Origin: Escherichia coli
GTDB lineage: Bacteria > Pseudomonadota > Gammaproteobacteria > Enterobacterales > Enterobacteriaceae
Direction: 5' to 3' (one strand)
DNA length: 64,000 nucleotides
NCBI RefSeq assembly: GCF_046105845.1
Contig: NZ_CP151004.1
In this document: positions 3,271 to 16,754 of the stretch, one piece after another
Position numbering within the stretch: the stretch's first letter is position 1
Layout: every line of letters starts with the position of its first letter
Notes under the pieces: generated by a model
What the model saw: only the letters and a program-made list of their open reading frames with translations
The model's database searches: none
What the model was told of the DNA's origin: nothing
Made by a program: the position numbers and the translations under genes

Positions 3271-3984
3271 TTATTTGTTTTGGAAATGTTTGTTTTTTCC
3301 CGGTAGTGATTTGTCAAAAAAGGTGATTAATCGATCACTTAATGGCGTCAGCAACACCCAGGGCAAACCGATTAATATCACGGTCATCGAACCGACAATG
3401 ATGTCAGTAAACCAGTGTGCGCCAATCATTACTCTGGGAAACGCAAAAACCACAAAAATAATAAGGGCGATAAGGCCTGCAACTTTGCCGAAATAACGCC
3501 ACATGAATGCCGAAAAAATAAGCAGCATCATACCGTGATCGCCGGGAAAGCTATCTCGTGAGGCATCTTTAGTGGGAACAGAGAGCAGTTCGCTGACGCG
3601 GTTAATATCGGTAAAAGTCAATGTTGGGCTGGCCCGTTTTACAGGAATTAATGCCTGACCCAGCTGGTTTAATACCACTGCAGTTAATAGCATGACCAGA
3701 CCAATAATCACGATACGTCGTCTGCCTGGGGCGTTTTCTTTCAGCCAGAAACTCAGCATCAACATTCCCATCGCCAGCAGTGAACAACCGTCGAAAGCGC
3801 GATTGTTGGTCAATGCAACCAGCCACAAAAAGGCCTTACTTTCGACCAGTTTCTGATTAAAGAAATAAAAAATATCCGCATCAATCGGCAACCAGAATCC
3901 ATGATTAACGGGTATATACCAGGAAAGAAACAGCGCGAGGCCGACAATATTCAACAACACTATTTGCGGCAAATTTTTAATCAT
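3271..3984 (-). CDS. lpxT: Lipid A 1-diphosphate synthase (PAP2-family phosphotransferase)
   Basis: 237 aa from ATG at 3984-3982 (MIKNLPQIVLL…); the track ORF from 4020 is over-extended at the 5' end. Multi-TM with PAP2 motifs (…PGDHG…, …GAHWFTD…). Confidence 0.85.
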   Translation of the reverse strand: MIKNLPQIVLLNIVGLALFLSWYIPVNHGFWLPIDADIFYFFNQKLVESKAFLWLVALTNNRAFDGCSLLAMGMLMLSFWLKENAPGRRRIVIIGLVMLLTAVVLNQLGQALIPVKRASPTLTFTDINRVSELLSVPTKDASRDSFPGDHGMMLLIFSAFMWRYFGKVAGLIALIIFVVFAFPRVMIGAHWFTDIIVGSMTVILIGLPWVLLTPLSDRLITFFDKSLPGKNKHFQNK

Positions 3985-9342: not shown

Positions 9343-10473
9343 ATGTTCCAGTTATCCGTACAGGACATCCATCCGGGCGAAAAGGCCGGAGACAAAGAAG
9401 AGGCGATTCGTCAGGTCGCTGCGGCGCTGGTGCAGGCCGGTAATGTAGCTGAAGGCTACGTCAATGGCATGCTGGCGCGCGAACAGCAAACCTCTACGTT
9501 CCTCGGCAATGGTATTGCTATTCCACACGGCACTACCGACACCCGCGATCAGGTGCTGAAAACCGGCGTTCAGGTATTTCAGTTCCCGGAAGGCGTCACC
9601 TGGGGTGACGGCCAGGTAGCGTACGTGGCGATCGGTATTGCTGCCAGCTCGGATGAACATTTGGGCCTGCTACGCCAGCTGACCCACGTACTGAGCGATG
9701 ATTCCGTTGCTGAACAACTGAAGTCAGCAACAACAGCAGAAGAACTTCGCGCATTGCTGATGGGCGAAAAGCAGAGTGAGCAGCTGAAGCTCGACAACGA
9801 AATGCTGACGCTGGATATCGTCGCCAGCGATCTGCTGACTCTTCAGGCGCTGAACGCTGCACGTCTGAAAGAAGCGGGGGCAGTTGACGCCACTTTCGTC
9901 ACCAAAGCCATCAATGAACAACCGCTGAACCTCGGACAGGGCATCTGGCTGAGCGATAGCGCCGAAGGCAATCTGCGTAGCGCGATTGCGGTAAGCCGTG
10001 CGGCAAATGCTTTTGATGTGGACGGCGAAACGGCAGCCATGCTGGTGAGTGTGGCGATGAATGACGATCAGCCCATTGCGGTTCTTAAGCGTCTCGCTGA
10101 TTTGTTACTCGACAATAAAGCTGACCGCTTGCTGAAAGCGGATGCGGCAACGTTGCTGGCGCTGCTGACCAGCGATGATGCGCTGACCGACGACGTGTTA
10201 AGCGCGGAGTTTGTGGTGCGCAATGAACACGGCCTGCATGCTCGTCCAGGTACCATGCTGGTCAATACCATTAAACAATTTAACAGTGATATTACCGTGA
10301 CAAACCTTGATGGCACCGGCAAACCGGCAAACGGACGTAGTCTGATGAAAGTTGTGGCACTTGGCGTTAAGAAAGGTCATCGCCTACGCTTTACCGCCCA
10401 GGGTGCAGATGCTGAACAGGCGCTGAAAGCCATTGGCGACGCTATCGCTGCTGGTCTTGGGGAGGGCGCATAA
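9343..10473 (+). CDS. fruB: PTS fructose-specific multiphosphoryl transfer protein (EIIA-M-HPr-like, FPr)
   Basis: 376-aa ORF with a C-terminal HPr-like domain (…[14 protein letters not shown]…). Shine-Dalgarno gagaggag at 9331-9338. First gene of fruBKA. Confidence 0.93.
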
Positions 10474-11411
10474 TGAGCAGACGTGTTGCTACTATCACCC
10501 TTAATCCGGCTTATGACCTTGTTGGTTTCTGCCCGGAAATTGAACGCGGCGAAGTGAACCTGGTGAAAACCACCGGTCTGCATGCGGCGGGTAAAGGCAT
10601 CAACGTGGCCAAAGTATTAAAAGACCTGGGAATTGATGTCACCGTTGGCGGCTTCCTCGGTAAAGACAATCAGGATGGTTTTCAGCAACTGTTCAGCGAG
10701 CTGGGCATTGCCAACCGTTTCCAGGTTGTACAGGGGCGCACCCGAATTAACGTTAAGCTGACGGAAAAAGACGGCGAAGTGACCGACTTCAACTTCTCGG
10801 GTTTTGAAGTCACCCCCGCCGACTGGGAACGCTTTGTGACTGATTCTCTGAGCTGGCTCGGTCAGTTCGATATGGTCTGTGTCAGCGGAAGCTTACCGTC
10901 AGGCGTCAGCCCGGAAGCGTTCACCGACTGGATGACTCGCCTGCGTAGTCAGTGTCCTTGCATTATCTTTGATAGTAGCCGCGAAGCGTTAGTAGCAGGT
11001 TTGAAAGCGGCACCGTGGCTGGTGAAACCTAACCGCCGCGAGCTGGAAATCTGGGCGGGCCGTAAACTGCCTGAAATGAAAGATGTGATTGAAGCTGCGC
11101 ATGCGCTGCGTGAACAAGGTATCGCGCATGTCGTTATTTCACTGGGTGCCGAAGGCGCGCTTTGGGTTAATGCCTCCGGCGAATGGATCGCCAAACCACC
11201 GTCAGTCGATGTCGTAAGCACCGTTGGCGCAGGGGATTCTATGGTTGGTGGCCTGATTTATGGCTTGCTGATGCGTGAATCCAGTGAACACACACTGCGT
11301 CTGGCGACAGCTGTTGCAGCCCTGGCGGTAAGTCAAAGCAATGTGGGTATTACCGATCGTCCGCAGTTGGCCGCAATGATGGCGCGCGTCGACTTACAAC
11401 CTTTTAACTGA
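10473..11411 (+). CDS. fruK: 1-phosphofructokinase (PfkB family)
   Basis: 312-aa ORF with the PfkB signature (…GAGDSMVGG…). Its ATG overlaps the fruB stop (taATGa). Confidence 0.93.
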   Translation: MSRRVATITLNPAYDLVGFCPEIERGEVNLVKTTGLHAAGKGINVAKVLKDLGIDVTVGGFLGKDNQDGFQQLFSELGIANRFQVVQGRTRINVKLTEKDGEVTDFNFSGFEVTPADWERFVTDSLSWLGQFDMVCVSGSLPSGVSPEAFTDWMTRLRSQCPCIIFDSSREALVAGLKAAPWLVKPNRRELEIWAGRKLPEMKDVIEAAHALREQGIAHVVISLGAEGALWVNASGEWIAKPPSVDVVSTVGAGDSMVGGLIYGLLMRESSEHTLRLATAVAALAVSQSNVGITDRPQLAAMMARVDLQPFN

Positions 11412-11427: not shown

Positions 11428-13119
11428 ATGAAAACGCTGCTGATTATTGACGCTAATCTCGGTCAGGCACGCGCCTATATGGCGAAGACCCTGCTGGGCG
11501 CGGCGGCGCGAAAAGCAAAACTGGAAATCATCGACAATCCGAACGACGCTGAAATGGCGATTGTTCTCGGTGATTCCATCCCGAACGACAGCGCGCTGAA
11601 CGGTAAAAATGTCTGGCTGGGCGATATTTCCCGGGCAGTTGCGCACCCTGAGCTGTTCCTGAGTGAAGCCAAAGGCCATGCGAAACCTTACACTGCGCCG
11701 GTCTCTGCGACAGCACCGGTTGCCGCCAGCGGTCCGAAACGCGTAGTTGCGGTGACTGCTTGCCCGACTGGCGTAGCACACACCTTTATGGCGGCTGAAG
11801 CCATTGAAACCGAAGCGAAAAAACGTGGCTGGTGGGTGAAAGTTGAAACCCGTGGTTCTGTTGGCGCGGGTAATGCAATCACTCCCGAAGAAGTCGCAGC
11901 AGCGGATCTGGTGATTGTGGCGGCAGATATCGAAGTGGATCTGGCGAAATTTGCTGGTAAACCGATGTATCGTACCTCTACCGGTCTGGCGCTGAAGAAA
12001 ACCGCGCAGGAACTGGATAAAGCGGTTGCTGAAGCAACGCCGTATGAACCGGCGGGCAAAACTCAAACAGCGACCACTGAAGGTAAGAAAGAGAGTGCAG
12101 GCGCTTACCGTCACTTGCTGACGGGCGTCTCTTACATGCTGCCGATGGTCGTTGCAGGTGGTCTGTGTATCGCGCTTTCTTTTGCTTTTGGTATCGAAGC
12201 GTTTAAAGAGCCGGGTACGTTGGCTGCGGCGCTGATGCAGATTGGTGGTGGTTCAGCCTTTGCGTTGATGGTGCCGGTACTGGCAGGTTATATTGCCTTT
12301 TCCATTGCCGATCGTCCGGGTCTCACGCCGGGTCTGATTGGCGGTATGCTGGCGGTCAGCACCGGTTCTGGCTTCATTGGCGGTATTATTGCGGGCTTCC
12401 TGGCTGGTTACATTGCGAAGTTAATCAGTACGCAATTGAAACTGCCACAGAGTATGGAGGCGCTGAAACCGATTCTGATCATTCCGCTAATTTCCAGTCT
12501 GGTGGTCGGTCTGGCGATGATCTACCTGATCGGTAAACCGGTTGCTGGCATTCTCGAAGGGTTGACTCACTGGCTGCAGACCATGGGGACTGCGAATGCG
12601 GTTCTGCTGGGGGCGATCCTCGGTGGCATGATGTGTACTGACATGGGCGGTCCGGTAAACAAAGCAGCGTACGCGTTCGGTGTGGGTCTGCTGAGTACTC
12701 AAACCTATGGCCCGATGGCGGCGATTATGGCGGCAGGTATGGTGCCACCGCTGGCAATGGGCCTGGCAACAATGGTGGCGCGTCGCAAATTCGACAAAGC
12801 GCAGCAGGAAGGTGGCAAAGCCGCTCTGGTATTGGGACTGTGCTTCATTTCGGAAGGTGCAATTCCGTTTGCTGCCCGTGATCCGATGCGAGTGCTGCCG
12901 TGCTGTATCGTGGGTGGGGCGCTGACTGGCGCAATCTCAATGGCGATTGGTGCGAAACTGATGGCACCGCACGGTGGTCTGTTTGTTCTGCTGATCCCTG
13001 GCGCGATTACGCCGGTATTGGGTTACCTGGTAGCCATTATTGCCGGTACGCTGGTGGCGGGTTTGGCCTATGCCTTCCTGAAACGTCCGGAAGTGGACGC
13101 AGTAGCGAAAGCAGCGTAA
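11428..13119 (+). CDS. fruA: PTS fructose EIIB'BC permease
   Basis: 563-aa ORF with N-terminal IIB-like domains followed by a polytopic IIC domain. Confidence 0.93.
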   Translation: MKTLLIIDANLGQARAYMAKTLLGAAARKAKLEIIDNPNDAEMAIVLGDSIPNDSALNGKNVWLGDISRAVAHPELFLSEAKGHAKPYTAPVSATAPVAASGPKRVVAVTACPTGVAHTFMAAEAIETEAKKRGWWVKVETRGSVGAGNAITPEEVAAADLVIVAADIEVDLAKFAGKPMYRTSTGLALKKTAQELDKAVAEATPYEPAGKTQTATTEGKKESAGAYRHLLTGVSYMLPMVVAGGLCIALSFAFGIEAFKEPGTLAAALMQIGGGSAFALMVPVLAGYIAFSIADRPGLTPGLIGGMLAVSTGSGFIGGIIAGFLAGYIAKLISTQLKLPQSMEALKPILIIPLISSLVVGLAMIYLIGKPVAGILEGLTHWLQTMGTANAVLLGAILGGMMCTDMGGPVNKAAYAFGVGLLSTQTYGPMAAIMAAGMVPPLAMGLATMVARRKFDKAQQEGGKAALVLGLCFISEGAIPFAARDPMRVLPCCIVGGALTGAISMAIGAKLMAPHGGLFVLLIPGAITPVLGYLVAIIAGTLVAGLAYAFLKRPEVDAVAKAA

Positions 13120-13128
13120 TAAAAGGTG

Positions 13129-13161
13129 TGTTACAGGGCAGAAATTTCCTGCCCTGTAACA
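13129..13161 (+). terminator. Stem-loop immediately downstream of fruA (13-bp stem, no U-tract)
   Basis: tgttacagggcag-aaatttc-ctgccctgtaaca, a perfect 13-bp stem starting 10 nt after the fruA stop; followed by only ttt. Confidence 0.5.
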
Positions 13162-13274
13162 TTTGATGAGCGCAAAGGGAATGACCGGTTTGTGAATGTA
13201 ATTTTATGAATTTAAATGGTTTTATCTTTTAGTAGAAACCTGAAACTTTCATCAAACACTAAGGTTATTTCCTC

Positions 13275-13306
13275 AAGGGCAGATTAATTTCTGCCCTTTT
13301 TTATTG
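13275..13306 (+). terminator. Canonical intrinsic terminator downstream of fruA
   Basis: aagggcag-attaattt-ctgccctt followed by ttttttattgtt. The stem core (agggcag/ctgccct) is shared with the hairpin at 13129-13161. Confidence 0.75.
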
Positions 13307-13440
13307 TTCCTGTTCTGTGCATCCCGTCACAAATTCCCCGTTTTTGTAATTCAGGCATTTAATCGCGTTTTGTGAGCCTGCTCAAATCTGCCCATTTTGC
13401 CTCTCTGGCGGTAATTTACTTTACGTAAAACATGCATACT

Positions 13441-13476
13441 ATGAGCACATGTTTAAATATGAACACATGTTTAAAC
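13441..13476. repeat. Tandem 18-bp direct repeat upstream of psuK
   Basis: atgagcacatgtttaaat | atgaacacatgtttaaac: two adjacent 18-mers with 2 mismatches, each containing the palindromes acatgt and tttaaa, ~70-100 bp upstream of the psuK ATG. Confidence 0.7.
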
Positions 13477-13542
13477 CGTCTTTGCAGTATCAATATTCTT
13501 GTGGATTGACAGGGTTGGTAATTTTTTACCAGAGGACGTGCT

Positions 13543-14484
13543 ATGCGCGAAAAGGATTATGTCGTAATTATAGGTTCGGCGAATATTGATGTCGCCGGAT
13601 ATTCACATGAATCATTAAATTATGCGGATTCAAATCCAGGTAAAATAAAATTTACGCCTGGTGGAGTCGGGCGCAATATTGCACAAAACCTGGCGTTGCT
13701 GGGGAATAAATCCTGGCTACTGAGCGCAGTAGGCAGTGATTTTTATGGTCAATCGTTGCTAACGCAAACCAATCAATCTGGTGTTTATGTCGATAAATGC
13801 CTGATTGTGCCGGGAGAAAACACGTCGAGCTATTTATCATTACTCGATAATACCGGTGAAATGCTGGTTGCTATAAATGACATGAATATTAGCAACGCTA
13901 TTACAGCTGAATATCTCGCACAGCACCGTGAATTTATTCAAAGGGCAAAGGTCATTGTCGCGGACTGTAATATCAGTGAAGAGGCACTGGCATGGATTCT
14001 GGATAATGCCGCCAATGTACCTGTATTTGTCGATCCGGTTTCGGCATGGAAATGTGTCAAAGTGCGCGACCGTCTAAATCAGATCCACACCCTGAAGCCA
14101 AACCGCCTTGAAGCGGAAACCCTGAGTGGGATTGCTTTGTCAGGGCGTGAAGATGTGGCAAAAGTTGCTGCCTGGTTCCATCAACATGGCCTGAACCGAC
14201 TGGTATTGAGCATGGGCGGCGATGGCGTTTATTACAGCGATATCAGCGGTGAAAGTGGCTGGTCTGCGCCGATCAAAACCAATGTTATTAATGTTACCGG
14301 AGCGGGCGATGCCATGATGGCTGGACTTGCTTCGTGTTGGGTAGACGGAATGCCGTTTGCCGAATCTGTTCGTTTCGCACAGGGATGTTCGTCAATGGCG
14401 CTCTCCTGTGAATACACCAATAACCCCGATTTATCGATTGCCAACGTTATATCTTTAGTGGAGAACGCAGAATGTCTGAATTAA
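13543..14484 (+). CDS. psuK: Pseudouridine kinase (PfkB family)
   Basis: 313-aa ORF with ribokinase-like motifs (…GGVGRNIAQNLALLG…, …GAGDAMMAG…). SD gagga at 13532-13536. Confidence 0.88.
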   Translation: MREKDYVVIIGSANIDVAGYSHESLNYADSNPGKIKFTPGGVGRNIAQNLALLGNKSWLLSAVGSDFYGQSLLTQTNQSGVYVDKCLIVPGENTSSYLSLLDNTGEMLVAINDMNISNAITAEYLAQHREFIQRAKVIVADCNISEEALAWILDNAANVPVFVDPVSAWKCVKVRDRLNQIHTLKPNRLEAETLSGIALSGREDVAKVAAWFHQHGLNRLVLSMGGDGVYYSDISGESGWSAPIKTNVINVTGAGDAMMAGLASCWVDGMPFAESVRFAQGCSSMALSCEYTNNPDLSIANVISLVENAECLN

Positions 14485-15410
14485 AAATTTCCCCTGAATT
14501 ATTACAAATTTCCCCGGAAGTGCAGGACGCTTTAAAAAACAAAAAACCGGTTGTGGCGCTGGAATCGACCATTATTTCTCACGGGATGCCGTTCCCACAA
14601 AATGCCCAGACCGCAATTGAAGTTGAAGAAACTATTCGTAAACAGGGCGCTGTACCTGCCACTATCGCCATTATTGGCGGCGTGATGAAAGTGGGTTTAA
14701 GCAAAGAAGAAATTGAATTGCTGGGTCGTGAAGGGCATAACGTGACCAAAGTTAGTCGTCGCGATTTACCTTTTGTTGTTGCCGCCGGAAAAAATGGCGC
14801 AACCACCGTTGCTTCAACGATGATTATTGCGGCGCTTGCCGGAATTAAAGTATTTGCCACCGGGGGAATTGGTGGTGTGCATCGCGGGGCGGAACATACC
14901 TTCGATATTTCTGCCGATTTGCAAGAACTGGCGCACACCAATGTCACCGTCGTTTGTGCCGGGGCGAAATCTATTCTCGATTTAGGCTTAACTACCGAAT
15001 ATTTAGAAACTTTCGGTGTACCGCTAATTGGCTATCAGACCAAAGCGCTGCCTGCGTTTTTCTGCCGCACCAGCCCGTTTGAAGTCAGTATTCGCCTTGA
15101 TAGTGCCACGGAAATTGCTCGTGCAATGGCAGTGAAATGGCAAAGCGGTCTGAACGGTGGCCTGGTGGTGGCAAATCCGATCCCGGAACAGTTTGCGATG
15201 CCGGAGGAATCTATCAATGCAGCCATAGATCAAGCCGTCGCCGAAGCCGAAGAGCAGGGCGTTATTGGTAAAGAAAGCACACCGTTCCTGCTGGCTCGTG
15301 TTGCTGAACTGACTGGCGGTGACAGCCTGAAATCCAACATCCAACTGGTGTTCAACAACGCCATTCTGGCGAGCGAAATTGCCAAAGAATATCAGCGTCT
15401 CGCGGGTTAA
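14472..15410 (+). CDS. psuG: Pseudouridine-5'-phosphate glycosidase
   Basis: 312-aa ORF of the IndA-like glycosidase family; overlaps the psuK 3' end by 13 bp. Confidence 0.88.
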   Translation: MSELKISPELLQISPEVQDALKNKKPVVALESTIISHGMPFPQNAQTAIEVEETIRKQGAVPATIAIIGGVMKVGLSKEEIELLGREGHNVTKVSRRDLPFVVAAGKNGATTVASTMIIAALAGIKVFATGGIGGVHRGAEHTFDISADLQELAHTNVTVVCAGAKSILDLGLTTEYLETFGVPLIGYQTKALPAFFCRTSPFEVSIRLDSATEIARAMAVKWQSGLNGGLVVANPIPEQFAMPEESINAAIDQAVAEAEEQGVIGKESTPFLLARVAELTGGDSLKSNIQLVFNNAILASEIAKEYQRLAG

Positions 15411-15503: not shown

Positions 15504-16754
15504 ATGGATATAATGAGAAGTGTTGTGGGGATGGTGGTGCTACTGGCAATAGCATTTCTGTTGTCAGTGAATAAAAAGGGCATCAGTTTGCGCACGGTTG
15601 GAGCCGCACTGCTGCTGCAAATCGCTATTGGTGGCATCATGCTCTACTTCCCACCGGGAAAATGGGCAGTAGAACAGGCGGCATTAGGCGTTCATAAAGT
15701 GATGTCTTACAGTGATGCCGGTAGCGCCTTTATTTTTGGTTCATTGGTCGGGCCGAAAATGGATGTCCTGTTTGATGGCGCGGGCTTTATCTTCGCCTTT
15801 CGCGTACTCCCGGCGATTATCTTCGTCACTGCGCTCATCAGTCTGCTGTACTACATTGGCGTGATGGGGCTGCTAATCCGCATTCTTGGCAGTATTTTTC
15901 AGAAAGCTCTCAACATCAGCAAAATCGAATCTTTTGTTGCGGTTACCACTATTTTCCTCGGGCAAAATGAGATCCCGGCGATTGTAAAACCGTTTATCGA
16001 TCGCATGAATCGCAACGAGCTGTTTACCGCAATTTGTAGCGGGATGGCGTCCATTGCGGGTTCGATGATGATTGGTTATGCCGGAATGGGCGTACCAATT
16101 GACTACCTGTTAGCGGCATCGCTGATGGCGATCCCTGGTGGTATCTTGTTTGCACGTATTCTTAGTCCGGCAACCGAGCCTTCGCAGGTCACATTTGAAA
16201 ATCTGTCGTTCAGCGAAACGCCGCCAAAAAGCTTTATCGAAGCAGCGGCGAGCGGTGCGATGACCGGGTTGAAAATCGCCGCTGGTGTGGCGACGGTGGT
16301 AATGGCGTTTGTCGCAATTATTGCGCTGATCAACGGTATTATCGGCGGAATTGGCGGCTGGTTTGGTTTTGCCAATGCTTCTCTGGAAAGTATTTTTGGC
16401 TATGTGCTGGCACCGCTGGCGTGGATCATGGGTGTGGACTGGAGTGATGCCAACCTGGCGGGTAGCCTGATTGGGCAGAAACTGGCGATTAACGAATTCG
16501 TCGCTTACCTGAGCTTCTCCCCATACCTGCAAACGGGCGGCACGCTGGAAGTGAAAACCATTGCGATTATCTCCTTTGCGCTTTGTGGTTTTGCTAACTT
16601 TGGTTCTATCGGTGTTGTCGTTGGCGCATTTTCGGCTATTTCGCCAAAACGCGCACCGGAAATCGCCCAGCTTGGTTTACGGGCGCTGGCAGCAGCAACG
16701 CTTTCCAACCTGATGAGCGCGACCATTGCCGGGTTCTTTATTGGTTTAGCTTGA
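15504..16754 (+). CDS. psuT: NupC-family (CNT) nucleoside transporter
   Basis: 416-aa polytopic membrane ORF; close paralog of the ORF at 18691-19941. Confidence 0.88.
   Translation: MDIMRSVVGMVVLLAIAFLLSVNKKGISLRTVGAALLLQIAIGGIMLYFPPGKWAVEQAALGVHKVMSYSDAGSAFIFGSLVGPKMDVLFDGAGFIFAFRVLPAIIFVTALISLLYYIGVMGLLIRILGSIFQKALNISKIESFVAVTTIFLGQNEIPAIVKPFIDRMNRNELFTAICSGMASIAGSMMIGYAGMGVPIDYLLAASLMAIPGGILFARILSPATEPSQVTFENLSFSETPPKSFIEAAASGAMTGLKIAAGVATVVMAFVAIIALINGIIGGIGGWFGFANASLESIFGYVLAPLAWIMGVDWSDANLAGSLIGQKLAINEFVAYLSFSPYLQTGGTLEVKTIAIISFALCGFANFGSIGVVVGAFSAISPKRAPEIAQLGLRALAAATLSNLMSATIAGFFIGLA

Follow-up and report, generated by a model that had tools for sequence, protein, structure and literature searches.

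Two copies of an apparently ancestral terminator hairpin in the fruBKA 3′ untranslated region of Escherichia

The 3′ untranslated region (3′UTR) of the fruBKA operon, as found in a 64-kb stretch of Escherichia coli DNA to which all coordinates refer (hereafter the window), contains two hairpins, hp1 and hp2, separated by an AT-rich interval. This 183-nt 3′UTR is best explained by the presence of two copies of an ancestral terminator hairpin, and we consider it probable that the distal copy (hp2) terminates transcription, that the proximal copy (hp1) is protective and that the interval represents a spacer. The duplication of the ancestral hairpin, which is specific to the genus, forms the main point of this analysis and did not feature in the first-pass annotation of the locus. 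The feature is real, and is mostly an ordinary long 3′UTR with an unusual, datable origin.

The coordinates of the hairpins and the flanking genes are provided in Table 1. Positions 13000-13600 are 100% identical to the corresponding region of E. coli strain VCSW7. The fruA stop codon (TAA; 13117-13119) is directly followed by a second in-frame TAA, and both hairpins are located within the first 185 nt past the stop codon of a fruA-psuK intergenic region of 423 nt. Nothing is annotated between fruA and psuK in the RefSeq records, save for an occasional 48 amino acid hypothetical CDS on the opposite strand, which is annotated in an O111 record and is truncated in the window. A scan of positions 12500-14000 against Rfam 15 (E-value up to 10) produced only chance-level matches (12.7-20.6 bits; E = 0.5-8.7), the best of which score far below the gathering scores, and as such no described RNA family is matched. 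A search of one literature collection found no paper discussing an RNA from the fruA 3′UTR or the fruA-psuK region, and the TERMITe tables and the Rend-seq and 3′-UTR-valve papers contained no usable entry for this region. The psuK upstream region harbors a CRP-like motif (TGTGA-N6-TCAAA; 13371-13386), an 18-nt tandem repeat (13440-13475) and a psuK leader with its own T6 run (13521-13526).

Table 1. Features of the fruBKA-psuKGT locus in the 64-kb window
Feature	Positions	Strand	Description	Basis
fruB	9343-10473	+	fruBKA operon	
fruK	10473-11411	+	fruBKA operon	
fruA (PTS fructose IIBC)	11428-13119	+	Last fruBKA gene	ORF list; RefSeq annotation (VCSW7, other E. coli records)
hp1	13129-13161	+	Arms 13129-13141/13149-13161; 13-bp perfect stem; 7-nt loop	
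AT-rich interval	13162-13274	+	Part of fruBKA 3′UTR; single-copy, Escherichia-specific	
hp2	13275-13302	+	9-bp stem AAGGGCAGA/TCTGCCCTT (13275-13298); 6-nt loop; T6 run 13297-13302	
psuK upstream region	13303-13542	+		Rho-region table of Adams et al. 2021 (PMC7815308); repeat search; conservation
psuK	13543-14484	+	3′ of the fruA-psuK intergenic region	
psuG	14472-15410	+		
psuT	15504-16754	+		

Origin of the hairpin pair

Both hairpins, including the perfect 13-bp stem of hp1 and its lack of a U-tract, were confirmed, with hp1 (-24.0 kcal/mol) representing the longest perfect hairpin of the window. The conserved hp1 core, AGGGCAG…CTGCCCT, spans positions 13135-13155, and the outer six base pairs (TGTTAC/GTAACA) are specific to E. 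coli. The observation in the first-pass annotation that hp1 and hp2 share the same stem core is real and goes beyond chance, as the pattern GGGCAG-N3-12-CTGCCC occurs exactly twice in the 64 kb, once in each hairpin, against an expected 0.06 occurrences, and two occurrences were reached in 0/100 shuffles. Furthermore, hp1 and hp2 constitute the only pair of nearby hairpins in the window with a common 7-mer, and the fold of the 206-nt region compared with shuffles gives a z-score of -5.7.

The sequence 3′ of the fruA stop codon was inspected in 80 loci coding for close FruA relatives, with one genome included per species. Exactly one GGGCAGAG…CTCTGCCC hairpin, followed by four or more T residues and located 16-29 nt past the stop codon, is present in 28/75 non-Escherichia loci, which belong to Citrobacter, Klebsiella, some Enterobacter, Leclercia, Silvania, Pluralibacter and Buttiauxella. 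When one mismatch per arm is allowed, one such hairpin is present in 45/75 of these loci. Several of the single-hairpin loci run into a psuK-type upstream region (TGTGATTCTGTTCATA…) and therefore have the same synteny as the window. The members of the Enterobacter cloacae group, Lelliottia and most Buttiauxella have another downstream gene and another terminator. The sole second match outside Escherichia, with the arms GTGCAG/CTGCGC, is located at +369 in a single locus (L044), far downstream of fruA, and does not represent a copy.

All Escherichia loci harbor a copy of the hairpin at +17 without a T-run, and in all except those of lineage L005 and strain SE15 a second copy with a T-run was scored, at +157/158 or +189. 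The two-copy loci belong to E. coli, E. whittamii, E. albertii and two further Escherichia lineages, and are absent elsewhere among the 80 loci. The core of the proximal hairpin of SE15 (hp1′) is too decayed for a pattern match, yet it folds. Lineage L005 has lost the region corresponding to 13241-14593, so that hp2 and psuK are gone and hp1 is kept. The proposed check on the conservation of both hairpins in orthologous fruA 3′ regions thus finds the pair only in Escherichia and one hairpin in 28 loci of its relatives.

The presence of a single hairpin in the related genera and of two in Escherichia indicates that hp1 and hp2 are paralogues, both derived from one ancestral terminator hairpin. 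Relative to the ancestral 22-mer, hp1 carries one substitution and one deletion, and the ancestral T-run is kept by hp2. On the comparison of these loci, hp1 is a genus-specific paralogue of the terminator that lacks the U-tract, and the duplication dates to after the Escherichia/Citrobacter split and before the Escherichia radiation. Position (+17) points to hp1 as the original copy and the T-run points to hp2, with the stop-to-hairpin spacers too variable among genera to decide. An origin through tandem duplication was considered and found no support; local alignment of the interval with the downstream intergenic region scores 18 (shuffle mean 17.1), and the interval, being dissimilar to that region, bears no sign of such an event.

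Constraint on the proximal hairpin

The first base of hp1 lies 9 nt past the fruA stop codon, with the conserved core at +17, the ancestral terminator position. A hairpin that starts 9 nt after a stop codon is located just outside the footprint of the terminating ribosome, and hp1 can therefore fold during fruA translation.

The window was compared with three other Escherichia lineages (L004, L006 and L007). The hp1 core is identical at 14/14 positions in all three and its outer left arm is only 17-50% identical, while hp2 is identical at 23-24/24 positions (96-100%) in the other Escherichia lineages, with an invariant T-run. Within eight E. coli strains which share the haplotype of the window (allele A), 4/13 loop positions are variable and the hp2 stem is invariant. 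A C>T change in the stem of K-12 retains a G·U pair, which argues for constraint at the RNA level. A further substitution, A13158T, which occurs in O111-like strains, breaks one outer hp1 pair and is seen in many E. coli, and the 13-bp stem of hp1 is therefore not universal.

A second haplotype (allele B) is found in E. coli of phylogroup B2 and also in E. albertii. About 1200 of 5426 complete E. coli genomes (about 22%) match the window only up to position 13092. When SE15 (phylogroup B2) is compared with the window, the two are 98.4% identical up to 13092 and about 87% identical from 13414 through psuT, with 45-63% identity inside the 3′UTR. Allele B alters the C-terminal residues of FruA (ETQIVEKNA in SE15 versus EVDAVAKAA), and its stop codon is followed by a hairpin, TCATCATCGGGG…CCCCGATGATGA, with a 12-bp perfect stem (-25.1 kcal/mol), the core of which in E. 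albertii reads GGGGCAGAGATATCTCTTCCCC. This hairpin is followed by a pair of REP sequences and subsequently by GAGGGCAGA(A/G)ACATCTCTGCCCTTTTT, with hp2 still ahead of the T-run. The order of stop codon, U-less hairpin, spacer and terminator is thus common to both alleles, and the architecture therefore survives complete replacement of the spacer. The hp1 stem is extended with different outer base pairs in each haplotype, TGTTAC/GTAACA in allele A and TCATCATC/GATGATGA in allele B, at -24.0 and -25.1 kcal/mol, respectively.

A stable stem-loop is thus retained 3′ of the stop codon with an invariant core, fixed stems and variable loops. From this pattern we infer that hp1 is an RNA stem-loop kept by selection. 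The first-pass annotation proposed that hp1 could be an RNase-protective structure, and this role plausibly fits the pattern of conservation.

The main alternative, which we regard as somewhat unlikely, is that hp1 is a functionless neutral relic, the core of which has been kept similar to that of hp2 by gene conversion or through a short divergence time. Conservation of the hp1 core may accordingly reflect gene conversion with hp2 instead of selection. Within each haplotype, hp1 and hp2 have derived states in common, as would be produced by concerted evolution. Allele A changes the ancestral GGGCAGAG at the eighth base in both copies (GGGCAGAA in hp1 and GGGCAGAT in hp2), and both copies of allele B read ATCTCT where the ancestral sequence is TTCTCT. 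Furthermore, the interior of hp1′ has decayed in SE15 (GGGGATGAGA versus TCTCTGCCCC), and the broken outer pair noted above is common in E. coli. However, the 14 positions of the hp1 core are unchanged across lineages which differ at about 25% of neutral sites, the stems have been lengthened independently to equal stability in both haplotypes, polymorphisms cluster in the loops, and L005 keeps hp1 without hp2, i.e., without a partner for conversion.

Termination at the distal hairpin and the nature of the interval

All the sequence features of an intrinsic terminator are present in hp2, including the stem-loop and U-tract, with five G-C pairs in the stem and a stability of -15.5 kcal/mol, and hp2 was called as a terminator by the scan. 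The orthologous hairpin of the 28 non-Escherichia loci likewise stands with its T-run after fruA. In the published Term-seq data for E. coli MG1655, the "M63 0.4" tab of Supplementary file 1 lists a 3′ end at 2259536(-), with the class 'orphan' and an average count of 28,730.8 (Adams et al. 2021, PMC7815308). The sequence printed for this entry, …CCTCAAGGGCAGATTATTTTCTGCCCTTTTT[T]ATTGTTCTGT, corresponds to hp2, and the end falls within the U-tract, on the last T of the T6 run (window position 13302; PMC7815308). This end was found in one of the three conditions (M63 glucose), and its count lies near the bottom of the minus-strand values inspected in that table (PMC7815308). The Rho table of the same study furthermore includes an entry at 2259533(-) in K-12 (Rho score: 3.54; p = 3e-5), with upstream/downstream reads of 44/28 without bicyclomycin and 43/97 with it (PMC7815308). 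Bicyclomycin thus raises the number of reads past hp2, at the start of the psuK upstream region, and Rho therefore holds back transcription that runs past hp2. The terminator scan and the published 3′ end on the last U bear out the suggestion that the second hairpin is the true terminator, and hp2 represents the intrinsic terminator of fruBKA and the orthologue of the one terminator found in the related genera.

The U-tract right after the stem that characterizes such terminators is lacking in hp1. The sequence directly 3′ of hp1, UUUGAUGA, contains four U residues in eight, and hp1 failed the plus-strand terminator scan. It is unlikely that the two hairpins act as tandem terminators, whereby hp1 would be a weak first terminator, with its long stem and UUUGAU freeing some polymerases, and hp2 would be the back-up, despite the GC-rich stem of 13-14 bp (-24 kcal/mol) which precedes these four U residues. 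Termination at hp1 is expected to be inefficient, as the U-tract has been lost, and the Term-seq table includes no entry at 22596xx or 22597xx, the positions of an hp1 3′ end, on either strand in the three fructose-free conditions (PMC7815308). The latter is weak evidence, because the hp2 count is itself near the lowest and none of the conditions included fructose. The two alleles also differ 3′ of the hairpin (TTTGATGA, with four T residues in eight, in allele A versus CAAACGCA in allele B). The allele B hairpin is followed by CAAACGCAAAA, with zero U residues, and termination therefore cannot be the conserved role of hp1.

The interval has a G+C content of 31.9%, compared with 51.3% for the window. 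Its identity to the three other Escherichia lineages (67%, 76% and 81%) matches the level at the four-fold degenerate sites of fruA (74-77%), and it thus evolves at the neutral rate. Each of 4230 E. coli genomes carries it at a single place, phage records contain no match to it, and its 'plasmid' matches are to E. coli records of 0.37-4.9 Mb in size, over 95% identical, which are apparently chromosomes filed as plasmids. The many copies per genome expected of a repeated mobile element (REP/BIME or MITE) were thus not found. An IS1 element is inserted at about 13185/13186 in strain 203740, splitting the interval. Regarding its coding capacity, the first-pass annotation listed only tiny ORFs of 8-9 amino acids; the size was underestimated, as mechanical ORFs of 23-27 amino acids occur in the region, but none of them is conserved in other Escherichia, and the alignment with E. 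whittamii reduces the 23 amino acid ORF to four codons. The conserved small ORF with a ribosome-binding site that would denote a small protein or a type I toxin-antitoxin system is hence absent. RNAalifold predicts an imperfect long stem in the interval with three compensatory pairs and a covariation term of +0.2, from about four effectively distinct sequences, and a covariation term of about zero gives no net support for a structure. On these sequence comparisons, the interval appears to be a neutrally evolving, dispensable spacer.

The retention of the U-less copy through the Escherichia radiation in both haplotypes, with its stem strengthened independently, also forms the basis for a broader and quite doubtful reading, that of a selected 3′UTR module. 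Endonucleolytic cleavage within the AU-rich or REP spacer would yield a long-lived fruBKA mRNA capped by a hairpin and a fragment bearing the terminator, which could be a lineage-specific ligand or sponge of Hfq/ProQ.

It is very unlikely that the interval and hp2 constitute a 3′UTR-derived small RNA (sRNA), as the first-pass annotation had suggested, released by RNase E cleavage after hp1 or transcribed from an internal promoter and bound by Hfq/ProQ at the hp2 U-tract. An AU-rich stretch followed by a terminator with U6 is typical of 3′UTR-derived sRNAs, the interval has a weak consensus fold, and the Term-seq 3′ end was detected without added fructose (PMC7815308). An RNA of the fruA-psuK intergenic region has been recovered on Hfq by RIL-seq, where the node fruA.psuK.IGR occurs in stationary phase only, with 42 chimeric fragments and one partner (Bar et al. 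2021, Table S1, PMC8175672). However, this node has a 'second in chimera' (SIC) score of -1, being always first in the chimera, and an sRNA score of 0.00103 (PMC8175672). It therefore behaves on Hfq as a target rather than as an sRNA, and the fragment may equally represent the psuK leader. Furthermore, nowhere in the interval does conservation exceed the neutral level, as it would in a conserved seed, and the interval is missing in E. albertii and in the approximately 22% of E. coli genomes in which REP sequences replace it, besides being split by IS1 in one isolate. A sigma-70-like promoter was not predicted in 13120-13300, and no Rfam family was matched. The stretch thus looks like neutral filler and not like a small-RNA gene.

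We consider it highly improbable that the segment from hp1 to hp2 is a present or former small non-autonomous mobile element that was inserted into the terminator. A perfect 12-nt inverted repeat (13135-13146/13286-13297) does flank the AT-rich segment, which represents an insertion relative to the other genera, and mobile REP sequences occupy the same place in the alternative haplotype. The segment is, however, single-copy in the 4230 E. coli genomes, with no phage or true-plasmid copies, its 'terminal repeats' are arms of the two copies of the resident palindrome, and no target-site duplication is visible apart from the hairpin itself.

Two remaining readings were rejected on geometry and missing conservation, and are extremely improbable. 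An attenuator-like switch, in which the right arm of hp1 and the left arm of hp2 would form an anti-terminator whenever a ribosome standing on the fruA stop codon obstructs hp1, coupling fruA translation to readthrough into psuKGT, draws on the mutual complementarity of the four arms and on the Rho-sensitive readthrough past hp2 (PMC7815308), but the alternative pairing comprises no more than 7 bp and would have to close a loop of about 120 nt, both local hairpins are retained in the minimum-free-energy and centroid folds, and the arrangement is missing in other genera with the same fruA-psuK synteny. Termination of an antisense transcript by hp1, after which the minus strand continues with CACCUUUUAU, draws on the minus-strand scan, which scores hp1 with 15 pairs and the tail CACCTTTTAT, but the T-run begins 4 nt past the stem and merely represents the opposite strand of the conserved stop region (TAATAAAA), allele B lacks this run and in other clades its position is shifted, the only minus-strand promoter-like site in 13162-13560 is inside psuK, and no 3′ end is listed for a minus-strand antisense transcript (PMC7815308). 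The start of hp1, outside the terminating ribosome, likewise speaks against the attenuator-like switch. Each of the sRNA, mobile-element, attenuator and antisense-terminator readings conflicts with one or more of the tests.

The duplicated-terminator explanation which we favour would comprise the following steps. In the Escherichia ancestor, a second copy of the terminator hairpin would have arisen, with about 115-150 nt of unrelated DNA between the two. Of these, hp2, the distal one, would have kept its U-tract, so that RNA polymerase lets the transcript go at the last U, window position 13302, with Rho restraining readthrough toward psuK. The proximal copy, hp1, would have remained at the ancestral position, past the edge of the terminating ribosome, with the loss of its U-tract. 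Once the AU-rich spacer is cut or trimmed, hp1 may then block 3′-to-5′ exonucleases and leave a protected end on the fruBKA mRNA. REP stem-loops, such as those in the malE-malF intergenic region, shield the upstream mRNA from 3′-to-5′ exonucleases in this manner.

Comparison with known systems

Little is new with regard to mechanism, as hp2 is a standard terminator with a 3′ end already included in a published Term-seq table (PMC7815308). The evolutionary value is modest and lies in a clean, datable case of bacterial 3′UTR growth, from about 45 nt to about 185 nt, through duplication of a terminator hairpin around foreign DNA, with the U-less copy hp1 afterwards retained and strengthened. Duplication of a terminator hairpin could possibly be a recurrent route of 3′UTR growth, and if hp1 does stabilise the fruBKA mRNA, stabiliser stem-loops can derive from terminators and not from REP elements alone.

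Several known systems resemble parts of this arrangement. The Hfq-dependent 3′UTR-derived sRNAs of the CpxQ, SdhX, NarS and MalH type share its position at the end of an operon and the combination of an AU-rich stretch with a terminator with U6, but the fruBKA interval lacks a conserved seed, is target-like in RIL-seq (score of 0.001) and does not occur in one-fifth of the E. coli genomes. Tandem terminators likewise present two serial hairpins past the last gene; in the fruBKA 3′UTR, however, the U-tract and the mapped 3′ end occur only at hp2, and the hairpins are paralogous rather than unrelated. The stem-loops of REP/BIME elements are, like hp1, stable, without a U-tract and located between the stop codon and the real terminator, and allele B harbors a genuine REP pair in this position. 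Unlike these, hp1 is not a REP sequence but is single-copy and terminator-derived, and its protective effect is one which we only infer. The closest counterpart is the fruBKA terminator of Citrobacter, Klebsiella and Enterobacter (GGGCAGAGATTTCTCTGCCC followed by T6-8), with which hp2 shares the core, the stem length and the T-run, and hp1 shares the core and the distance from the stop codon. In contrast to that single terminator, Escherichia harbors two copies located 140-170 nt apart, of which hp1 has no U-tract and has its stem lengthened by a lineage-specific 6-8 bp.

Haplotype breakpoint at the 3′ end of fruA

A sharp haplotype breakpoint is located 27 nt ahead of the fruA stop codon, at window position 13092, and resembles the edge of an ancient recombination or introgression tract. 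The diverged haplotype beyond this point is found in ~1200/5426 E. coli genomes, which are B2-type, such as SE15. These B2-type genomes share 98.4% identity with the window upstream of the breakpoint, but only ~87% across psuK-psuG-psuT, and the final FruA residues are likewise changed in them. E. albertii carries the same 3′UTR type as the B2-type E. coli.

Coordinates of the features discussed, relative to the window and the compared loci
Feature	Window	Strand	Locus	Remark
Diverged haplotype	13092 to at least 17061		L001 (SE15), L008 (E. albertii), L090, L091
Deletion 1	equivalent to 13241-14593		L005	Distal interval, hp2, psuK and 5′ end of psuG lost
Deletion 2	equivalent to 15521-16547		L005	Most of psuT lost
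48-aa hypothetical protein	13212-13358	minus	L003, 713-859	E.g. O111:H8 strain 99.1145
CRP-like half-palindrome	13371-13386
18-nt tandem repeat	13440-13475

The fruA-psuK intergenic region

Within the AT-rich interval separating the U-tract-less hairpin (hp1) from the intrinsic terminator (hp2), RNAalifold predicts an imperfect long stem (13176-13274), in which roughly 13176-13195 pairs with 13252-13273. This predicted stem has three compensatory pairs among Escherichia lineages; its net covariation term is about zero, and the available sequences are too few for a judgement. In E. coli strain 203740 an IS1 element is inserted into this interval, with its junction at approximately 13185/13186.

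Directly after hp2, at ~13303-13310 of the window (K-12 position 2259533, minus strand), a Rho-dependent termination region has been mapped by DirectRNA-seq with and without bicyclomycin (PMC7815308). Since bicyclomycin raises the reads downstream of hp2 in K-12 from 28 to 97 (PMC7815308), Rho serves as a back-up to the intrinsic terminator, insulating psuK from fruBKA. Some RefSeq records also annotate a hypothetical protein on the opposite strand across hp2, which is probably spurious, as the corresponding minus-strand ORF in the window encodes only 24 aa.

Elements upstream of psuK and operon decay

The pseudouridine operon is decayed in the lineage of Escherichia sp. MOD1-EC7003 (L005), where two deletions, at locus positions 3371 and 4297, are observed and hp1 is the sole hairpin remaining after fruA.

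Some 70-100 nt ahead of psuK is a tandem direct repeat of 18 nt (TATGAGCACATGTTTAAA / TATGAACACATGTTTAAA), which shows no variation among the Escherichia lineages with the window-type fruA 3′UTR, is mostly retained in the diverged haplotype, and is probably an operator for some regulator of psuKGT. A CRP-like half-palindrome, TGTGA-N6-TCAAA, is also present upstream of psuK, and its counterpart at the equivalent position in Citrobacter, Enterobacter and Leclercia loci is TGTGATTCTGTTCATA.
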